A stretch of DNA of 64,000 nt, taken from contig CAKOMD010000001.1 in NCBI GenBank assembly GCA_934096555.1, forward strand, positions 27,474 through 91,473, in the 5' to 3' direction. Within the stretch, counting starts at the first letter, position 1. The number at the start of each line of letters is the position of its first letter. The notes beneath the pieces were generated by a model. The model was not told the DNA's origin and made no database searches. It saw nothing but the letters and a program-made list of their open reading frames with translations. A program made the translations under genes and the position numbers. Shown in pieces: positions 1,813-59,574 of the stretch. The stretch is from an uncultured Bacilli bacterium. Lineage in GTDB: Bacteria > Bacillota_I > Bacilli_A > RF39 > UBA660.

Positions 1813-3325
1813 ATTTTTTATTTCCTTCCCGTTCAATGCATAAAGTCAAAGACAAAATCAGCATTGGACTTGTCCATCCAAATAAATGACCTGAAAAATA
1901 ACATAGCACTAAGCCAAAAAACGAAGATATTAGACATAAACAATACTCATATCTAAAATTATATTTATTAAATGCATTAGCAAAATTATACATAAATAAT
2001 GCAATATACGGACCAACAAGTAATAAGAAACCTAATATTCCAAATAGATAATATTGATAAACATAATCTCTCTCTATATCCATAAAGTCTATTGTGTAAC
2101 CTAATCCTAAAAGAGAATCAAATTTATTATCATTTCTTTTTTCTATTCTTTCAATAATATCCACTTTTAATATCCTATAATCATTATTTAATTTTTTATC
2201 TCTTTTTGCCATATTATACCAAAAGTCACGATCGTTTTTAATAGGATATAATTCATAAAAAACTGTAGCAATTTTAAATGTTCCATTATTATCACTAAGT
2301 AATTTTTCAAACTCATCATCAGATAAATCACTATCTAATTTTTGATAAATTAATTTTTCATCCTCTGTTGTCTTCTCTCCCTTATCACTTACTCCTGAAC
2401 TAAATGAAACTCCGCTTGATAACATATGTCTAAATGGTGATATATAAAACCATGTAGCAGAAAAAATTGCAATAAACAAGTACATCAGTAGATACTTCTT
2501 ATCAAATTTTTCTTTAAATAAAAATACAAAAAATAAATATATTATTAAAGAACCAAATACTACAAGTAGTGATCCAATTGAAGCTACTTTAGTACCAACA
2601 ATTATCATAGAGGTTATCTGTAATATCACTAATAATAAGTCCTTAATTTTTTTATTAGTATATAAATTATAAATATTTATAGGAAGTAACATTACAAGTA
2701 TAATTGAAATTTGATTTGCTGATGGAAATAATCCCATAGTAAACAAATGTCTAAAATTATCTTTATAGATAAATACATCAAAGAAATTAGTACTATTAAC
2801 AAGATAATTAGCAGTATTTTCAGGATAAGAACTATAAGAAATTCTAAATATATTTGAAACAACTATAAGTCCAGAAATAAAACATACCAAATATTTTACT
2901 ATTCCTAAATAATATTGTTTATTAAATATATCCTTATTTTTCCACAAAGTAATAATTAACATAAGTGGAAGCATATAAACTCTAAATATATAATAAAGTT
3001 CAACAAAAAAGTTTGGATTAGCCTTCTCATAAATACTAGTATTAAAATTATAAATATGCAAACAATGTAACACTAAGTATATACCCAGAAATATTACATA
3101 CAAAATAGCACCTTTTTTAAAGTTAAATTTATTTTTAATAATCGAAGTGATAAAAGCAAGTGAAATCAAAAATATATTTACAAATTCAATCAAAGCAATA
3201 TTAAATATTTCAATATCTTTTAAATCAGTACCTCTAATTATATCAATCAAAGGTAATAAAATAAATACTAAACTTATAGAATATTTAATAATTCTATCTT
3301 TAATTTTCATTCTTATCATCTCCAA
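1802..3325 (-). CDS. Polytopic membrane protein, Wzy / O-antigen-ligase-like, with a large acidic extracytoplasmic loop
   Basis: 507 aa with more than 10 hydrophobic helices and one long hydrophilic D/E-rich loop. It lies between glycosyltransferase genes. Confidence 0.45.
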   Translation of the reverse strand: MEMIRMKIKDRIIKYSISLVFILLPLIDIIRGTDLKDIEIFNIALIEFVNIFLISLAFITSIIKNKFNFKKGAILYVIFLGIYLVLHCLHIYNFNTSIYEKANPNFFVELYYIFRVYMLPLMLIITLWKNKDIFNKQYYLGIVKYLVCFISGLIVVSNIFRISYSSYPENTANYLVNSTNFFDVFIYKDNFRHLFTMGLFPSANQISIILVMLLPINIYNLYTNKKIKDLLLVILQITSMIIVGTKVASIGSLLVVFGSLIIYLFFVFLFKEKFDKKYLLMYLFIAIFSATWFYISPFRHMLSSGVSFSSGVSDKGEKTTEDEKLIYQKLDSDLSDDEFEKLLSDNNGTFKIATVFYELYPIKNDRDFWYNMAKRDKKLNNDYRILKVDIIERIEKRNDNKFDSLLGLGYTIDFMDIERDYVYQYYLFGILGFLLLVGPYIALFMYNFANAFNKYNFRYEYCLCLISSFFGLVLCYFSGHLFGWTSPMLILSLTLCIEREGNKKYES

Positions 3326-4154
3326 AACTTAAGTAAACTTTGCCATGTCCAATTCTATCTTCTTCTGGAGGAAGTTTCATATAATCACCAAATATTTCAG
3401 TTAAATTTTTATGATATCCACTAGGAACAGTAAATTCAGTATCTTCAAATTTAACTTTTTCCATACTATTGAATGGTTCTTTTGAAAACTTAATTTCCGT
3501 TCCACCATCCAAAGAGTAATAATACTTAGAATTAGATTTATATAAACAAAAACGTTCTATGTTTTTTATTACTATTTTATTTCTTACTTTTTGTGGCAAA
3601 ATTCTAACAACAATTGATAATATTTTACCAATAGTTCCATAATTATTATATCTACTTTTATTATTTTTAATATTAGTTTCAATTAATAATCGAAGAAACT
3701 TATATCTTCTAGCAAATTTCTTTTCTTCCCTTTTGTTATCTGGATATTCAAGTAATGGAAAAACATCAACAAAAATACCATTATTAATATTATTATTTTC
3801 CCATCCATCTTCAACAAAAATAGTGTTGTTTAATCTAACTTTATCCCAAAGTAAGTAATAATTTTCTTCTGTTTTTAAAGTTTGATAGAAATATTTAGTA
3901 GTGTCTGCTTTTTCATTAAATATTTTTTGTAATTTTAAAAAATCTTCACCACTTACAAGCACATCAACATCATCATCCCACGGAATGAATCCATGATGTC
4001 TTATAGCACCTAATAAAGTACCATAAGCTAAATAATATTTAATATTATTTTCTTCACAAAATTCAGCGAAATATTTCATTATTCCCAATTCTTTTTTATG
4101 CAACTTATCAATATTTTTATTTTTATCTATAAATTTCATCTTGTTTACCTCCAT
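3300..4154 (-). CDS. licD: LicD-family phosphotransferase (phosphocholine / phospho-alcohol transferase to glycans)
   Basis: YYLAYGTLLGAIRHHGFIPWDDDVDV matches the LicD signature (YGTLLGAVRH..IPWDDDxD). Confidence 0.8.
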   Translation of the reverse strand: MEVNKMKFIDKNKNIDKLHKKELGIMKYFAEFCEENNIKYYLAYGTLLGAIRHHGFIPWDDDVDVLVSGEDFLKLQKIFNEKADTTKYFYQTLKTEENYYLLWDKVRLNNTIFVEDGWENNNINNGIFVDVFPLLEYPDNKREEKKFARRYKFLRLLIETNIKNNKSRYNNYGTIGKILSIVVRILPQKVRNKIVIKNIERFCLYKSNSKYYYSLDGGTEIKFSKEPFNSMEKVKFEDTEFTVPSGYHKNLTEIFGDYMKLPPEEDRIGHGKVYLSFGDDKNEN

Positions 4155-4165
4155 TTATGTAACAA

Positions 4166-5416
4166 TTACCCTATATATTTAATAAAATCATTCATCGTAG
4201 TATAAGTTACGACAACAAACCTTGGAAGTCTAAATTTATCACTTCCTACTTTGGTTAAATTATCACTTTTACTACTTTCACCTGCAAAAGCCATATTAAA
4301 TCCAGCTTCTTTTGCTATTTCAATTGAATAATTATTATACTCATAAAATGGATAACATAAAACTGTCGAACCATTTAACTTTTCTCTACTAGTTTTTAAA
4401 TCATTTAATATTTGATTTCTTGGTAAGCACTTAATTCCCCCACCTTGTCCACCAGGACACTTACCACCAGTATGTAATTTATCTGTATGCGAATGTAATT
4501 CAACATATTCACTTTCATAATCCTTAGGATTATAATCTCCCGTTATCAAAAATAATGTACCATTTAATTTATATTCATTTAGTAGTTCTATACCAAGTTT
4601 TGATCTCCAGCCATCATCAATAGTAATAACAACACTCTTAGGAAGTTGTAACTTACCATCAATATATAATTCTAACTCTTTCATTTTCAAAGTAAATATA
4701 TTATTATCACGAATATAATCTAAATGTTTTTTAAATTGACTTTTTGAATGACAAATCTCTTGATTACATTCAGATTGCTTTTCAGTATCGTCATCCCAAA
4801 AGAAGTGATAATTAAATGTACCAATTCCCTTAGTATTTGTTTCATCCGTATTATGATTTTCTATAACCTCTACTTCATTCTTTTTAACTTCATATAATTC
4901 ATTATTATATTCTACATAATACTCATTATCTTCTTTTATATAAATTGGTAGAGACATTTCTTTATTAAAAGTATAAATCAAATTTCCATCTTTATATAAA
5001 CTAACACTATCACTTTTAACATTCTGATTAAAAGGTATATATCTCTTATATCTAGTTTCTTTTTCAGGAAGACTTTCACTACTCTTATCGACACTATCAT
5101 AATCAATATAATATTCTTCATCCAAACTATCAATAGTAAAATACTTCGTATTTTCATCTATTTCTTGCTCTTTTAAAGATAATAACACACCTTTTTCAAT
5201 AGTACCTACCTTATTATATTCCTTATCATATATTGCACTATTTTTATTAGTTATTACAATCTGATTAAAATGAGAATTAATATCGCTAATTCTTTCCTTT
5301 AACTTATTTTCTTTATTACTAATATATAAATATCCCAAAATACCAATTATTAAAATAACTATTAATAATATAATCAAAGTTACTACTATTTTATTTTTTT
5401 TATGATAATTTCTCAT
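4166..5416 (-). CDS. Membrane-anchored polysaccharide deacetylase (NodB homology domain)
   Basis: There is an N-terminal TM helix, and the C-terminal part carries VVITIDDGWRS...HSHTDKLH...LCYPFYEYN, which is the NodB catalytic motif pattern. Confidence 0.7.
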   Translation of the reverse strand: MRNYHKKNKIVVTLIILLIVILIIGILGYLYISNKENKLKERISDINSHFNQIVITNKNSAIYDKEYNKVGTIEKGVLLSLKEQEIDENTKYFTIDSLDEEYYIDYDSVDKSSESLPEKETRYKRYIPFNQNVKSDSVSLYKDGNLIYTFNKEMSLPIYIKEDNEYYVEYNNELYEVKKNEVEVIENHNTDETNTKGIGTFNYHFFWDDDTEKQSECNQEICHSKSQFKKHLDYIRDNNIFTLKMKELELYIDGKLQLPKSVVITIDDGWRSKLGIELLNEYKLNGTLFLITGDYNPKDYESEYVELHSHTDKLHTGGKCPGGQGGGIKCLPRNQILNDLKTSREKLNGSTVLCYPFYEYNNYSIEIAKEAGFNMAFAGESSKSDNLTKVGSDKFRLPRFVVVTYTTMNDFIKYIG

Positions 5417-57191: not shown

Positions 57192-58262
57192 TTATTTAGT
57201 ATATTTATAACTATTATTATAATTATTCATACTATTAAAATATTTTTGATAAGAAATATAATTATTCTTATATAAATAATTTATCTTTTTAATATTATTA
57301 TCTCTTCTCCTTTTATTACTACTTTTTATCTTAATAATAGTTTTATTATTTCTAATATAAAACATATAACCTAAATATTCAAAACCATGATAACTATCAT
57401 ATATATTAGTTTTATTTTTATTAATATTTAATTTATATTTTTTATTTAAAATATATTCTATTTCTTTTAATGATTTCTTTAATCTATCTTTATCATTAGA
57501 TATAATAATATAATCGTCCATATATCTTACCATATATTTTAAATTTAAATTATGTATAATATAATGATCTAATTTATACAAATAAAATATAGATAATATT
57601 TGACTAGTCATATTACCTATAGGTAATCCTTTATTATATTCATATAATGGTAACTTATTTATTTCTTCACTTCTATTTTTATCTTTAATTAATAAATTAT
57701 TTTTAACACTATTAATTACTTCATTAATATATTTTTCATTAGTACTATCTATTATACTACTTACTATTTTATATTCTTCTTCATTTAATTTATCTTTTAA
57801 TAATTTTTTTAACACATCATGATCTATACTATAAAAATATTTACTAATATCTATTTTTAGTATATAAAATCTATCATATTTTTTATTTAATTCAATATAT
57901 CTTTTAAGTAATTTAATAGCATAATCATATTCCATATTCTTTCTAGTAGCACAATTTCTCATATCTAAATATTTATTTAATCTATGTAACAATATAAATC
58001 TAGCTACATAATGATTAATAATCTTATCCTTCATATTTAAACTCATAACTATTCTATATTTAGGACTATTAATAGTAAATATATTATATCTTTTAATTTT
58101 ATAATTATTATTCTCAATTATATTCTTAATATCATAAATATTTTCTATCTTATTCCTCTCAAAATTATAAACTTTATTCTTATTTTTAGTATTAACACTT
58201 ACTTCTTTTTCATAAATATCTATTATATCATTAACACTTACTTTCACTCTTAATCCATCCAT
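57192..58262 (-). CDS. DGR reverse transcriptase
   Basis: RT motifs are present: SPKYRIVMSLNMKDKIINHYV (motifs 1/2), LKIDISKYFYSIDHDVL (3), GLPIGNMTSQILSIFYL (4, the DGR-diagnostic IGxxxSQ), and RYMDDYIII (5, YMDD). The 356-aa size is typical of DGR RTs. Confidence 0.85.
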   Translation of the reverse strand: MDGLRVKVSVNDIIDIYEKEVSVNTKNKNKVYNFERNKIENIYDIKNIIENNNYKIKRYNIFTINSPKYRIVMSLNMKDKIINHYVARFILLHRLNKYLDMRNCATRKNMEYDYAIKLLKRYIELNKKYDRFYILKIDISKYFYSIDHDVLKKLLKDKLNEEEYKIVSSIIDSTNEKYINEVINSVKNNLLIKDKNRSEEINKLPLYEYNKGLPIGNMTSQILSIFYLYKLDHYIIHNLNLKYMVRYMDDYIIISNDKDRLKKSLKEIEYILNKKYKLNINKNKTNIYDSYHGFEYLGYMFYIRNNKTIIKIKSSNKRRRDNNIKKINYLYKNNYISYQKYFNSMNNYNNSYKYTK

Positions 58263-58569
58263 ATATCATTTTAGTAATAACAAGTAAATTATTACTTAAT
58301 TTTTCACAAACTTTATTATTAATATATTTATTCTTTAGACATCTTTCTAAATAAAAATCTAACATACTAATCTTACTCAATATATCTTTATAGTATTCAT
58401 TTTTATTATCACTATTATAATTACATCTATATACTAAATATAATATATCATAACTAGTATTATATAATCTTTCCTTAATTACTCTATCTTTATTTGGAAT
58501 ATTAATAACTATATTATCTATACTATATATAAATAATTTAATATTTTTTACTATCTTAAAATCATTCAT
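58231..58569 (-). CDS. avd: Avd-like accessory variability determinant (four-helix-bundle family)
   Basis: 112 aa, basic, with predicted helices. The pattern NIPNKDRVIKERLYNTSYDILYLVY...LSKISMLDFYLERCL resembles the four-helix-bundle / Avd family. It overlaps the RT start by 32 nt. Confidence 0.6.
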   Translation of the reverse strand: MNDFKIVKNIKLFIYSIDNIVINIPNKDRVIKERLYNTSYDILYLVYRCNYNSDNKNEYYKDILSKISMLDFYLERCLKNKYINNKVCEKLSNNLLVITKMIYGWIKSESKC

Positions 58570-58928
58570 ACATTTTCCTCAATCAAATCTAATAATTTAC
58601 TAACTTCTTCTTCAGTCATATTATTAACTTTATTTATAATCTTACTTACTCTATAATCTAAGTCTATTTTCTTTTTACCTTTTTCTAGATAACATTTATA
58701 TTTATTCTTATTACCATACATCTTCTTATTTACATCTTCCATATTTTCTTTAACAATATAACTAACACTATTATTTTCTAATATATTAATAACTTTATTA
58801 ATAGTATTAAGTGGAAAACCTACTTTTCCATTATTTATTTTATAATTACATAAATATGATAATACAATAGCATCATCATCAAAACATATATAAAACCCAC
58901 CTGATTTTCTTAAAATTACACTATTCAC
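58566..58928 (-). CDS. Small protein with a MutS-domain-I-like (mismatch-binding-domain-like) sequence; DGR accessory candidate
   Basis: RKSGGFYICFDDDAIVLSYLCNYKINNGKVGFPLNTINKVINILENNSVSYIV parallels MutS domain I (RMGDFYELFYDDA...L.L...GE.IPMAGIP.H....YL.KLV..G..VAI). It is translationally coupled (ATGA) to avd. Confidence 0.4.
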   Translation of the reverse strand: MNSVILRKSGGFYICFDDDAIVLSYLCNYKINNGKVGFPLNTINKVINILENNSVSYIVKENMEDVNKKMYGNKNKYKCYLEKGKKKIDLDYRVSKIINKVNNMTEEEVSKLLDLIEENV

Positions 58929-59217
58929 TTCTTATACTCCTTTTTACTTCTAATAATATATCTTTTATATAAGACATATATAAATATTTATAATAATTAT
59001 TTACTTCATAGTTATTTATACTAAGTATTTCTAAATTATCTAATACTATAAAATTAATACTATATTTTTTTAATAAATATAACTTATTATCAAAATTAAT
59101 ATAATCTAATATTCTCTTATCCTTATCAAAAGAATAATAATTTTTATTTTTCATTATTAATACTATATAATCTTTATATATATTCTTAGTAAATTCATAT
59201 CTATTTATCATACTCAT
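58921..59217 (-). CDS. Hypothetical 98-aa protein inside the DGR cassette
   Basis: The ORF overlaps the next gene and I found no recognisable motif. Confidence 0.35.
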   Translation of the reverse strand: MSMINRYEFTKNIYKDYIVLIMKNKNYYSFDKDKRILDYINFDNKLYLLKKYSINFIVLDNLEILSINNYEVNNYYKYLYMSYIKDILLEVKRSIRSE

Positions 59218-59465
59218 AATTTTTACCCCTTATTTTATTCCATAAAAAATAGTGCTAATATAGGCATAAAGAAAATGATTCAATTTCTTGAATTATTTTC
59301 TATAAAAGCCTATACTAGCACTTTTATTAATAATATCTATAGTTCTAGGTATACCCGTAGATATAATCCATCTATAGTCTAACATTTAGAGATAAATATC
59401 TCAAGGATAATTTCTGTCCTTTAAAGCCCTGTCATACTAAGCCTTAACCTAGTAGAAACCCACTA

Positions 59466-59574
59466 CATAAAGGGCTGGACGCACGCCATTGTTCGAATTA
59501 TACGCATTGTTGTTATTCAAGTTGCCGGACGAATTCACATTGAACACATTGTTCGCATTGCTGGAATTAGGGGT
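59466..59574 (-). repeat. DGR template repeat (TR), noncoding, 146 nt downstream of the target gene stop
   Basis: In the target reading frame the TR reads TPNSSNANNVFNVNSSGNLNNNNAYNSNNGVRPAL, with 13 AAC/AAT codons. It is about 85% identical to the VR, and nearly every mismatch falls on a TR adenine. Confidence 0.85.

Follow-up and report, generated by a model that had tools for sequence, protein, structure and literature searches.

A DGR from an uncultured gut bacterium with two accessory proteins probably derived from MutS domain I

The minus strand of the window (the whole 64,000-nt stretch of DNA analyzed here) carries a complete DGR, consisting of a target gene with its VR, a TR, a conserved non-coding element, two small genes (ORF98 and ORF120), avd and RT (Table 1). 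Very probably, the element is chromosomal, comes from an uncultured gut bacterium of the Bacilli/'Tenericutes' type with very AT-rich DNA, and encodes, in addition to avd, two accessory proteins derived from the mismatch-recognition domain (domain I) of MutS. The best explanation for the cassette as a whole combines this identity with a role for the two proteins against host mismatch repair, and on that combined account we are evenly divided.

Organization of the cassette and its two small genes

The DGR is genuine: it has an adenine-biased TR/VR pair, its RT is of the DGR type, and the target gene carries the VR at its C-terminal end. Of the 15 mismatches between TR and VR, 13 are at TR adenines; the two repeats share the GC-rich 3' end of the TR (GGCGTGCGTCCAG), which resembles an IMH, the start site of mutagenic homing. 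Residues 450–503 of the target gene product gave weak matches to DUF6273 (E = 0.0017) and phrog_9958 (3.4e-10), and homologues of the target gene were found upstream of the cassette in related loci. Pfam and PHROG searches of the cassette gave no match to an HRDC gene.

Table 1. Features of the DGR cassette, with positions in the window.
Feature	Position	Strand	Description
DGR target gene	59720..61264	-	514 aa ORF; N-terminal signal or anchor sequence, C-terminal variable C-type-lectin-like domain
VR	59789..59896	-	108-nt repeat at the 3' end of the target gene, 86% identical to TR
TR	59467..59574	-	108 nt; A = 33/108 bases
Structured non-coding element	59234..59486	-	Directly 3' of TR; based on conservation, nhmmer and RNAalifold
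ORF98	58921..59217	-	ATG start; 98 aa; pI 9.1 (9.12)
ORF120	58566..58928	-	GTG start; 120 aa; pI 8.7 (8.66)
avd (accessory variability determinant)	58231..58569	-	112 aa; bAvd Pfam 8.1e-8; phrog_3206 'Avd protein of DGR' 1.9e-12
DGR reverse transcriptase (RT)	57192..58262	-	356 aa; RVT_1 2.7e-21; phrog_1423 4.6e-58; IGNMTSQ and YMDD motifs in the translation

The non-coding element was detected by nhmmer in 14 loci, and blocks of it are almost unchanged between loci with a protein identity of only ~70%. RNAalifold predicted 56 base pairs, six of which had compensatory changes, and the 3' part of the element forms a predicted long hairpin followed by a T-run, just ahead of the ORF98 ribosome-binding site. 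The region had no match in Rfam. Most likely, it is the spacer part of the DGR RNA.

The first-pass annotation had reported two extra ORFs of 98 and 120 aa between the TR and avd, translationally coupled into the avd–RT operon. Both ORFs are present exactly as described, and the coupling is borne out by the gene junctions. The end of ORF98 and the start of ORF120 share 8 nt, and an AAGGAG Shine–Dalgarno sequence precedes the GTG by 8 nt; the next two overlaps are 4 nt (ATGA, ORF120 and avd) and 32 nt (avd and RT). No terminator-like sites were found inside the ORF98–ORF120–avd–RT block.

Both small genes are real and conserved. At the 25.9% G+C of the window, an estimated ~8.6% of random codons would be stops, giving chances of ~1e-4 and ~2e-5 for open frames of 98 and 120 codons, respectively. 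Single-sequence searches with the two proteins returned 44 and 57 homologues. Pairwise dN/dS values of 0.18–0.45 for ORF98 and ORF120, taken from the less saturated comparisons, indicate that both genes are under purifying selection, and the two diverged in parallel across loci, with paired identities of 87/89, 70/69, 59/64 and 49/45%.

The genes nearby are chromosomal in type, for example parC and PBP1A. A viral origin was considered and rejected: no relatives of ORF98 or ORF120 were detected by sequence in IMG/VR contigs or GenBank phages (by tblastn for the phages), and the neighbours are chromosomal.

Relationship of ORF120 and ORF98 to MutS domain I

ORF120 was predicted by AF2 with a pLDDT of 94.1, and the model has the fold of MutS domain I. 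The best 50 Foldseek matches in the PDB were all MutS or MSH chains, led by 7ou4_B (E = 4.9e-4, rmsd 1.1 Å over 57 columns); 1wbd_B superimposed with an rmsd of 1.4 Å over 69 columns. By sequence, ORF120 alone fell below the threshold for Pfam MutS_I (E = 0.0027; bit score 18.3, cut-off 20.6), but 94 of 131 diverse members of its family matched the model, the best at 2.1e-11. The resemblance to MutS domain I proposed from the sequence alone was thus upheld by both structure and family.

The motifs on which that proposal was based are also correct: GGFYICFDDDA in ORF120 aligns with GDFYELFYDDA in E. coli MutS, which places F12 at the position of the mismatch-stacking F36, and the family consensus, GkFYevYdeDA, aligns with GKFYELYHMDA in MSH6. 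The stacking Phe, equivalent to F36 in MutS and F432 in MSH6, is kept in 127 of the 131 family members, and the GFP motif (G-(F/I)-P in MutS/MSH) is near invariant. However, the Phe-X-Glu motif is not complete in ORF120, where Phe is present and Glu is gone: Glu38 is replaced by Ile, and the residue differs widely among family members (N 28, E 18, Y 13, H 13, R 12, others). A direct hhalign comparison between the ORF120 clade and the single E. coli MutS domain I sequence gave a probability of only 6.6% and served for the alignment register alone, which the MSH6 alignment confirms. When the broad family profile was run against PDB sequences, MSH6 and MutS came out on top, though with E-values of 0.018–0.5. 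A profile of the narrow clade, which is shallow and of low diversity, gave CDK12/13 (E = 0.07) and no MutS in the same search; these were rejected as chance matches.

The ORF120 family comprises 1014 clusters at 50% identity, with matches that span the full length of proteins that are nearly all 105–165 aa. The domain I core occupies residues ~3–70 of ORF120 and is followed by a three-helix tail (77–119) that occurs across the family and is specific to it; Foldseek alignments with MutS reached at most ~80 columns of the model and left the tail uncovered. Pfam and NCBIfam gave no other domain in ORF120 or ORF98, and NCBIfam has no model for either.

A gene of this type is not new to DGRs, and it no longer holds that avd and HRDC are their only accessory genes. 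Among 372 DGRs, 16 had a MutS-like ('MSL') accessory gene, an arrangement named 'Architecture D' (Wu, Gingery et al., Nucleic Acids Res 2018, PMC5758913), which leaves most DGRs without one; they were also reported as Msl in the Bacteroides Bfr, Bth and Bun DGRs (bioRxiv 10.1101/2024.11.15.621889), and are mentioned in DGR reviews. ORF120 matches the published description as a small stand-alone homologue of MutS domain I next to avd and RT in a cassette without HRDC, and falls inside the published ranges for size (112–283 aa) and pI (7.2 ± 1.7; PMC5758913), whereas ORF98 lies outside both. These ranges are descriptive and do not define the family. As judged by the published description, ORF120 is a short-form member of the MSL family, which also has long forms; the 16 published proteins are probably included among the 1014 clusters. 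The VR of the MSL-bearing Legionella DGR is of the DUF1566 type, while the one described here is of the DUF6273 lectin type; we suspect that the two are related.

ORF98 had been regarded in the first-pass annotation as an unrelated extra ORF. Instead, profile and structure comparisons indicate that it is itself a more degenerate, Phe-less, MutS-domain-I-like paralogue of MSL, for which homology to MutS was detected only indirectly. By hhalign, ORF98 matched the broad MSL family at 96.9% (E = 1.9e-10, 82 columns) and the ORF120 clade at 86% (E = 4.7e-6). The MSL HMM matched ORF98-type proteins at 1e-4 to 4e-8, and, conversely, the ORF98 HMM matched long MSLs at 1e-7 to 3e-4. The AF2 model had a pLDDT of 93.6, with only two of five models confident. 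Its top Foldseek matches in the PDB were all MutS or MSH3, with weak E-values (0.05–0.8), and its top viral matches in BFVD were small phage 'MutS domain I' proteins (A0A8S5PL02, A0A8S5PPT8 and A0A8S5L9N2; 74–153 aa, similar in size to ORF98), also weak (0.25–0.43). The ORF98 family, with 165 clusters, has neither a Pfam nor an NCBIfam model. Of 119 members, 112 have Lys or Asn at the F36-equivalent position, and none has an aromatic residue there. ORF98 retains an N-terminal helix that is missing from ORF120 and has one long C-terminal helix in place of the MSL three-helix tail; it is ~15 residues shorter than MSL in the β3/GFP-loop region, yet the GFP Phe is kept.

Such a second, far more divergent MutS-domain-I-like gene, below the MSL size range, distinguishes this cassette from the published ones. 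No mention of an ORF98-type paralogue was found in the searchable paper texts, a search that did not extend to the supplement of Wu et al. with its 'PAG1-4' candidates. ORF98 does not correspond to other DGR accessory proteins either. CH1 proteins are 160–169 aa, with a pI of ~4.7, and occur only in DGRs without avd or MSL, while ORF98 has 98 residues and a pI of 9.1 and occurs with both; HRDC (PF00570) is all-α, while ORF98 had no HRDC Pfam match and has a predicted α/β fold.

The resemblance of both proteins to MutS/MSH proteins (E. coli MutS, 1e3m/7ou4; human MSH6/MSH2; MSH3) is confined to domain I; ORF120 shares its fold (rmsd 1.1–2 Å over 57–72 columns) and the G-x-F-Y...DDA motif. The connector, core/lever, clamp and ABC ATPase domains (II–V) are absent from both, so that repair signalling is not possible, and ORF120 further differs from MutS by the missing N-terminal helix and the added tail. 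Functionally, ORF98 and ORF120 do not belong to the MutS repair family. Like Avd of Bordetella phage BPP-1 and the HRDC proteins of the Treponema/Legionella type, they are small, basic proteins of a nucleic-acid-binding type, encoded and transcribed together with a DGR RT; however, Avd is a pentamer of four-helix bundles and HRDC is all-α, and the two proteins are additional to Avd, not substitutes for it.

Linkage to avd and RT in related loci

Whether homologous DGRs carry the same ORFs had been put forward as a check on their relevance. Both were present in every related DGR locus with enough sequence. The ORF98-type gene was found inside MSL–avd–RT cassettes in all examined loci with enough flanking sequence, although its place varied (Table 2). 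This linkage and the purifying selection on ORF98 exclude the possibility that it is an incidental ORF.

Table 2. Gene orders in the window and related loci (O98, ORF98-type gene).
Order	Loci	Remarks
TR-O98-MSL-avd-RT	window, L001/10, L002, L011-19	
O98-MSL-avd-RT	L003, L020	target/VR beyond the available sequence
O98-TR-MSL-avd-RT	L004	TR at 1007-1109
O98, MSL, avd, RT in L004 gene order	L009	343-nt O98-MSL gap; TR not located there
MSL-avd-RT-O98	L024, L025, L029	
MSL-avd-RT-TR-O98-target2	L030	
Three MSL-type genes	L028	

MSL was followed directly by avd in seven of nine diverse representatives that were looked up; in the other two, either the contig stopped right after MSL or the downstream short ORFs matched neither avd nor RT. 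We regard the linkage of these proteins to avd and RT as obligatory. One protein (P0194) is a fusion between RT and MSL, and Wu et al. (2018, PMC5758913) listed three RTs with C-terminal MutS_I extensions, which suggests that MSL acts physically with RT. The close overlap between ORF98 and ORF120 is not conserved elsewhere, which makes an obligate heterodimer of the two proteins less likely. The distribution of ORF98 (eight cassettes versus one) suggests that it accompanies short-form MSLs; two long-form MSL contigs were too short to show its presence or absence. Some cassettes (L005, L028) also carry HTH genes.

Possible roles of the two proteins

The model that we favour, while leaning slightly against it as a fully correct account, is that MSL proteins bind the cDNA:VR heteroduplex and shield it from host mismatch repair. 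The RT–Avd complex would copy the TR RNA into adenine-mutagenised cDNA, which would pair with the VR to form a heteroduplex dense in mismatches. The MSL proteins, brought along with or beside RT, would bind this heteroduplex through the domain I surface, with stacking of the Phe in the case of ORF120. They would sit on the mismatches without triggering repair because the clamp, connector, ATPase and MutL-activating parts are absent, and, up to the point where the change is fixed by replication, the new sequence would be hidden from host MutS/MutL or protected against MutS-dependent rejection of homeologous pairing. ORF98 and ORF120 may form an asymmetric pair in which ORF98 does not stack; a Phe-bearing and a Phe-less protein recall the unequal copies of domain I in the MutS dimer, or MSH2 beside MSH6.

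Mismatch binding at A:N heteroduplexes, which the first-pass annotation had suggested, is a plausible proposal. MutS depends on Glu38 to discriminate mismatches; this residue is not conserved here, making specific mismatch recognition uncertain, and an isolated domain I is not known to bind DNA tightly when the MutS clamp domain is missing, which argues against the mechanism. The shielding model would also hold only if the host has mutS and mutL. In favour of the model, deletion of host mutS raised retrohoming of Bacteroides DGRs 5–10 fold, in an all-or-nothing manner (10.1101/2024.11.15.621889), and dominant-negative MutL was used to suppress mismatch repair in E. coli DGR reconstitutions (10.64898/2026.07.21.739853). 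The two constitutively active Bacteroides DGRs, Bov and Bfi, are those without Msl (10.1101/2024.11.15.621889), showing that Msl is not required for high activity. No biochemical or genetic work on any MSL protein was found in the literature searched.

Alternatively, MSL proteins might be cofactors for cDNA synthesis in an RT–Avd–RNA particle, where they would bind the RNA:cDNA hybrid or primer terminus, stabilise A:N mispairs for extension, or hold the TR/spacer RNA. The constant position of MSL beside avd–RT, the RT–MSL fusions, the basic character that ORF120 and ORF98 share with Avd, and the highly conserved structured RNA element directly beside the genes are all consistent with such a role. 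We nevertheless consider it unlikely, since most DGRs do without MSL, and the gene lies on either side of TR and RT, showing that it need not hold a set position in cis to the RNA. MutS domain I reads mismatches in B-form DNA from the minor groove, and an A-form hybrid is a different substrate. In addition, RT–Avd of BPP-1 reportedly carries out adenine-specific misincorporation in vitro without any MSL.

Slightly less likely still is that MSL promotes integration independently of host mismatch repair, either by stabilising the pairing of cDNA with an imperfect VR (homeologous annealing or a D-loop), or by marking the heteroduplex for resolution biased to the cDNA strand. The retained stacking Phe and GFP loop would fit binding to a distorted duplex, the genes are conserved in a small-genome lineage (1.36–1.41 Mb contigs) in which repair pathways may be reduced, and the linkage evidence applies equally to this proposal and to the shielding model. 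However, Pfam, PHROG and NCBIfam gave no domain for strand discrimination, nuclease activity or annealing, and the two proposals are hard to separate without genetics.

A more specific form of mismatch binding, in which ORF120 and ORF98 make up an asymmetric 'mini-MutS' devoid of ATPase and signalling parts that clamps the A:N mismatches of the cDNA:VR heteroduplex, hiding them or biasing fixation to the new strand, seems improbable to us. Finally, we consider it very improbable that either ORF, or both, encodes a small DNA-binding protein regulating transcription of the DGR operon, or that ORF98 has no function in the DGR: there is a terminator-like hairpin just upstream of ORF98, HTH genes occur in the cassettes noted above, and ORF120 has a weak PHROG match to a 'transcriptional regulator' family (phrog_18104, E = 6e-4, 30 residues), but this match covers only residues 23–52 and is far weaker than the MutS_I evidence, neither AF2 model has a helix-turn-helix, and ORF98 is constrained and linked as described.

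MSL genes were catalogued in DGRs in 2017/18. In the eight years since, host MutS has emerged as a major brake on mutagenic retrohoming, and those who engineer DGRs now switch mismatch repair off by hand. If neither protein binds mismatches, the cassette is one more MSL-type DGR and nothing beyond that. If the 'mini-MutS' proposal is true, it would be a retroelement-encoded, mismatch-specific anti-repair device made from the sensor domain of the repair protein itself. The locus adds to what is known of MSL that the family is large (at least 1014 clusters at 50% identity), has short and long forms, and keeps the Phe and not the Glu, and that in one gut Bacilli lineage a Phe-less MSL paralogue follows the cassette through rearrangements. 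The Phe-plus/Phe-minus pair offers a testable asymmetric-heterodimer hypothesis along with a natural mutant series. If MSL is the element's own answer to mismatch repair, it would provide a compact (~100–120 aa), portable part for directed-evolution tools based on DGRs or retrons, and would explain how dense A-to-N changes become fixed in repair-proficient cells.

The DGR in the window and its coding capacity

A complete DGR was found on the minus strand at 57192–61264, in which two genes of 98 and 120 aa, referred to in the following as ORF98 and ORF120, lie between the TR and the avd–RT pair. Of the 108 TR/VR positions, 15 are mismatched, and 13 of these are adenines in the TR. The other two are a C-to-A change at TR position 84, with A-to-T changes on both sides, and a C-to-T change at position 101, adjoining the GC-rich 3′ end, which may represent an IMH/IMH* difference. 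The G+C content of both repeats is far above the 26% of the genome.

Successive genes of the ORF98–ORF120–avd–RT block overlap by 8, 4 (ATGA) and 32 nt, a Shine–Dalgarno sequence (AAGGAG) is located 8 nt upstream of the ORF120 GTG start, and a simple terminator scan found no terminator-like sites inside the block. The first-pass annotation, which described two ORFs between TR and avd coupled into the avd–RT operon, was therefore accurate on this point.

Features of the DGR in the window, and gene order of the cassettes in the window and related loci (L numbers); MSL, MutS-like accessory gene; O98, ORF98-type gene
Feature or gene order	Locus	Position	Strand	Remark
Target gene	window	59720–61264	minus	514 aa
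VR	window	59789–59896	minus	inside target gene
TR	window	59467–59574	minus	
Non-coding element, TR to ORF98	window	59234–59486	minus	~250 nt
ORF98	window	58921–59217	minus	
ORF120	window	58566–58928	minus	
avd	window	58231–58569	minus	matches bAvd and PHROG "Avd protein of DGR" family
RT	window	57192–58262	minus	matches RVT_1; IGNMTSQ and YMDD motifs
TR–O98–MSL–avd–RT	window, L001/10, L002, L011–19			
O98–MSL–avd–RT	L003, L020			sequence available without target/VR
O98–TR–MSL–avd–RT	L004			TR at 1007–1109
O98–MSL–avd–RT	L009			343-nt O98–MSL gap; TR not located
MSL–avd–RT–O98	L024, L025, L029			
MSL–avd–RT–TR–O98–target2	L030			
long MSL (127 aa)–O98 (92 aa)–TR–short MSL (119 aa)–avd–RT	L028	3634–6252		

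ORF98 and ORF120 are real genes. The window has a G+C content of 25.9%, and the chance of an open frame was estimated at ~1e-4 for 98 codons and ~2e-5 for 120. Both proteins have numerous homologues and diverge in parallel from locus to locus, with dN/dS values, measured against progressively more distant loci, of 0.18–0.45 for ORF98 and 0.18–0.38 for ORF120 (avd, 0.08–0.2). The most similar loci come from MAGs of uncultured "Tenericutes" and Bacilli of the human gut. The neighboring genes in the window are chromosomal, including parC and a PBP1A-family gene, and searches of viral collections (IMG/VR contigs and GenBank phages) yielded no relatives.

Immediately 3′ of the TR, the non-coding element is better conserved than the genes on either side of it; one 41-nt block, CTATAGATGGATTATATCTACGGGTATACCTAGAACTATAGA, is unchanged between loci with ~70% protein identity. 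The element was detected in 14 loci by nhmmer and had no match in Rfam. RNAalifold predicted four to five hairpins with 56 pairs, six of them with compensatory changes. Probably, the element is a spacer-like part of the DGR RNA for cDNA priming. Its last hairpin (~59245–59320, minus strand) is a long inverted repeat with 15 predicted pairs followed by TTTTTT, ~25 nt before the start codon of ORF98. This looks like a terminator or attenuator, missed by the simple scan because the stem is AT-rich, and could determine how much TR RNA is made relative to accessory/RT mRNA.

Directly upstream of the target, on the same strand, are genes for proteins of 183 aa (61666–62217) and 198 aa (62222–62818) without Pfam or NCBIfam matches. 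At their N-termini they have similar signal/anchor sequences, which end in a YAY/YAW motif. The 183-aa protein resembles the target (phmmer, 4e-9), as does the equivalent of the 198-aa protein in a related locus, L012 (1.2e-7). Together with the target, they look like a small secreted or surface family with one diversified member. A 74-aa ORF between these genes and the target (61476–61700) may be a remnant.

ORF120 and the MSL family

When ORF120 alone was compared with Pfam MutS_I, residues 2–85 matched with E = 0.0027 and 18.3 bits, below the cut-off of 20.6. Foldseek comparison of an AF2 model (pLDDT 94.1, 21 homologues in the input) with the PDB was positive for the domain I fold: the best 50 matches were all MutS, MSH3 or MSH6 chains. 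The model aligned with 7ou4_B at E = 4.9e-4 and 1.1 Å rmsd over 57 columns, and with 1wbd_B at 1.4 Å over 69 columns; alignments to MutS chains covered at most ~80 columns. An ORF120-clade profile, searched against 1.84 billion cluster representatives, retrieved 1014 clusters at E ≤ 1e-3 (409 at E ≤ 1e-10), nearly all of them stand-alone proteins of 105–165 aa matched over their full length. Among 131 diverse members of the family, 94 matched MutS_I individually, the best at 2.1e-11. The likeness to MutS domain I suggested by the first reading was thus borne out by the model, the Foldseek matches and the family as a whole.

ORF120 is a MutS-like (MSL) protein as named by Wu et al. (NAR 2018, PMC5758913), whose main text reports MSL proteins of 112–283 aa in 16 of 372 DGRs, always with avd and never with HRDC. 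Msl has also been recorded in Bacteroides DGRs (10.1101/2024.11.15.621889) and in later reviews and surveys. The premise of the first-pass annotation, that DGRs have no accessories besides Avd or HRDC, was therefore outdated, and ORF120 is a further member of a known family. The MSL architecture is a domain I core with a family-specific three-helix tail (ORF120 residues 77–119). About half of the members have a short N-terminus (~12 residues before the Phe) and about half a long one (~23–25 residues, with an N-terminal helix).

In an alignment with E. coli MutS residues 1–118 (identical to 1e3m), G34-D35-F36-Y37-E38, which contains the Phe and Glu of the Phe-X-Glu mismatch-recognition motif, corresponds to ORF120 G10-G11-F12-Y13-I14. 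The MSL consensus GkFYevYdeDA likewise aligns with MSH6 GKFYELYHMDA. The stacking Phe is found in 127 of the 131 members and the GFP loop is nearly invariant, whereas the Glu38 position is unconserved (N 28, E 18, Y 13, H 13, R 12, I 9 and others). Thus, MSL retains the mismatch-inserting part of MutS, but lacks the residue for discrimination and signaling and everything beyond domain I.

ORF98 and the cassettes of related loci

ORF98 had no assignment in Pfam, PHROG or NCBIfam, and the sole name given to proteins of its family by any source is "hypothetical protein [Bacilli bacterium]". Profile–profile comparison connected the ORF98 family with the ORF120 clade (86%, E = 4.7e-6), and more strongly with the broad MSL family (96.9%, E = 1.9e-10, 82 columns). 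By hmmsearch, the MSL HMM found ORF98 proteins at 1e-4 to 4e-8, and the ORF98 HMM found long-form MSLs at 1e-7 to 3e-4. The AF2 model reached a pLDDT of 93.6, with two of five models confident. Its best 19 PDB matches were all MutS or MSH3, with weak E-values (0.05–0.8) and TM ~0.55, and its best four BFVD matches were small "MutS domain I" proteins from phages. Taken together, these results identify ORF98 as a degenerate second paralogue derived from MutS domain I.

The two proteins share an N-x-Y motif. ORF98 keeps the N-terminal helix of MutS and long-form MSLs, which is absent from ORF120, but is ~15 residues shorter in the β3/GFP region and ends in a single long helix instead of three. 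At the Phe36 equivalent, 112 of 119 ORF98-family members have Lys or Asn, and none has an aromatic residue. An alignment-based search gave 165 clusters; the 120 listed were all small (55–130 aa) and none was Pfam-annotated.

In every related locus with enough flanking sequence, the O98 gene lies within an MSL–avd–RT cassette, although its position varies. That O98 was kept despite these rearrangements argues strongly for a functional link with the DGR. L028 has three MSL-type genes. Short-form MSLs accompany O98 in eight cassettes, and the only cassette with a long MSL alone (L005) lacks it; these few cassettes are suggestive of O98 accompanying short rather than long MSLs. Among nine diverse MSL representatives looked up, avd directly follows MSL in seven; one of the other contigs ends after MSL, and in the other (L032) the short downstream ORFs match neither avd nor RT.

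Several cassettes had further peculiarities. L023 (480–2922) has an extra, apparently frameshifted MSL upstream of a second target gene. One protein from the ORF120-family search (P0194, 322 aa) is an RT–MSL fusion, in which a MutS_I domain (5.3e-8) is attached to the C-terminal portion of an RT (RVT_1, 2.3e-8); three RTs with such fusions are mentioned in the main text of Wu et al. (PMC5758913). In L003 (968–3905), a contig binned as Paludibacteraceae, the RT gene is split (968–1729 and 3573–3905) around an ORF whose product is a maturase-containing group II intron RT (RVT_1, 2e-25; GIIM, 2e-5), apparently by intron insertion. Target number and arrangement are highly variable within this lineage: two target genes flank the L030 cassette (2–811 and 3194–4327) and are 86% identical to each other over an 839-nt stretch, and upstream of MSL in L029 (160–801) there is a direct repeat of 314 nt with 94% identity.

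Possible roles of the MSL proteins

No function of MSL has been reported in the searchable literature. Mutagenic retrohoming is predicted to give a mismatch-dense cDNA:VR heteroduplex. In Bacteroides, deletion of host mutS increased diversification 5–10-fold in an all-or-nothing manner (10.1101/2024.11.15.621889), and builders of E. coli DGRs suppress mismatch repair for activity (10.64898/2026.07.21.739853).

We tentatively favor a role in which MSL proteins would bind this heteroduplex non-productively and, pending its fixation, shield it from MutS/MutL or from the rejection of homeologous pairing by MutS. The proposal is based on the Phe-bearing and Phe-less domain I proteins, the absence of repair-signaling domains, the obligatory avd–RT linkage and the occasional fusion of MSL to the C-terminus of the RT. 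ORF98 could be the non-stacking member of an asymmetric pair, as MSH2 is next to MSH6. Against shielding, Glu38 is lost in MSL, and an isolated domain I may bind DNA weakly. Furthermore, the most active Bacteroides DGRs lack Msl (10.1101/2024.11.15.621889).

We consider it rather unlikely that MSL proteins act instead in cDNA synthesis, inside the RT–Avd–RNA particle, and slightly less likely again that they assist annealing or bias the strand outcome during integration, independently of repair. A regulatory role, or no function at all, is highly improbable.

The MutS-like interpretation of ORF120 is supported, yet was published before as MSL, and nothing at this locus is categorically new. 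What is new relative to the main text of Wu et al. is the second paralogue, which lacks the Phe, and the architecture of cassettes with several MSL genes. What the MSL proteins do matters directly to the question of how DGRs escape mismatch repair.
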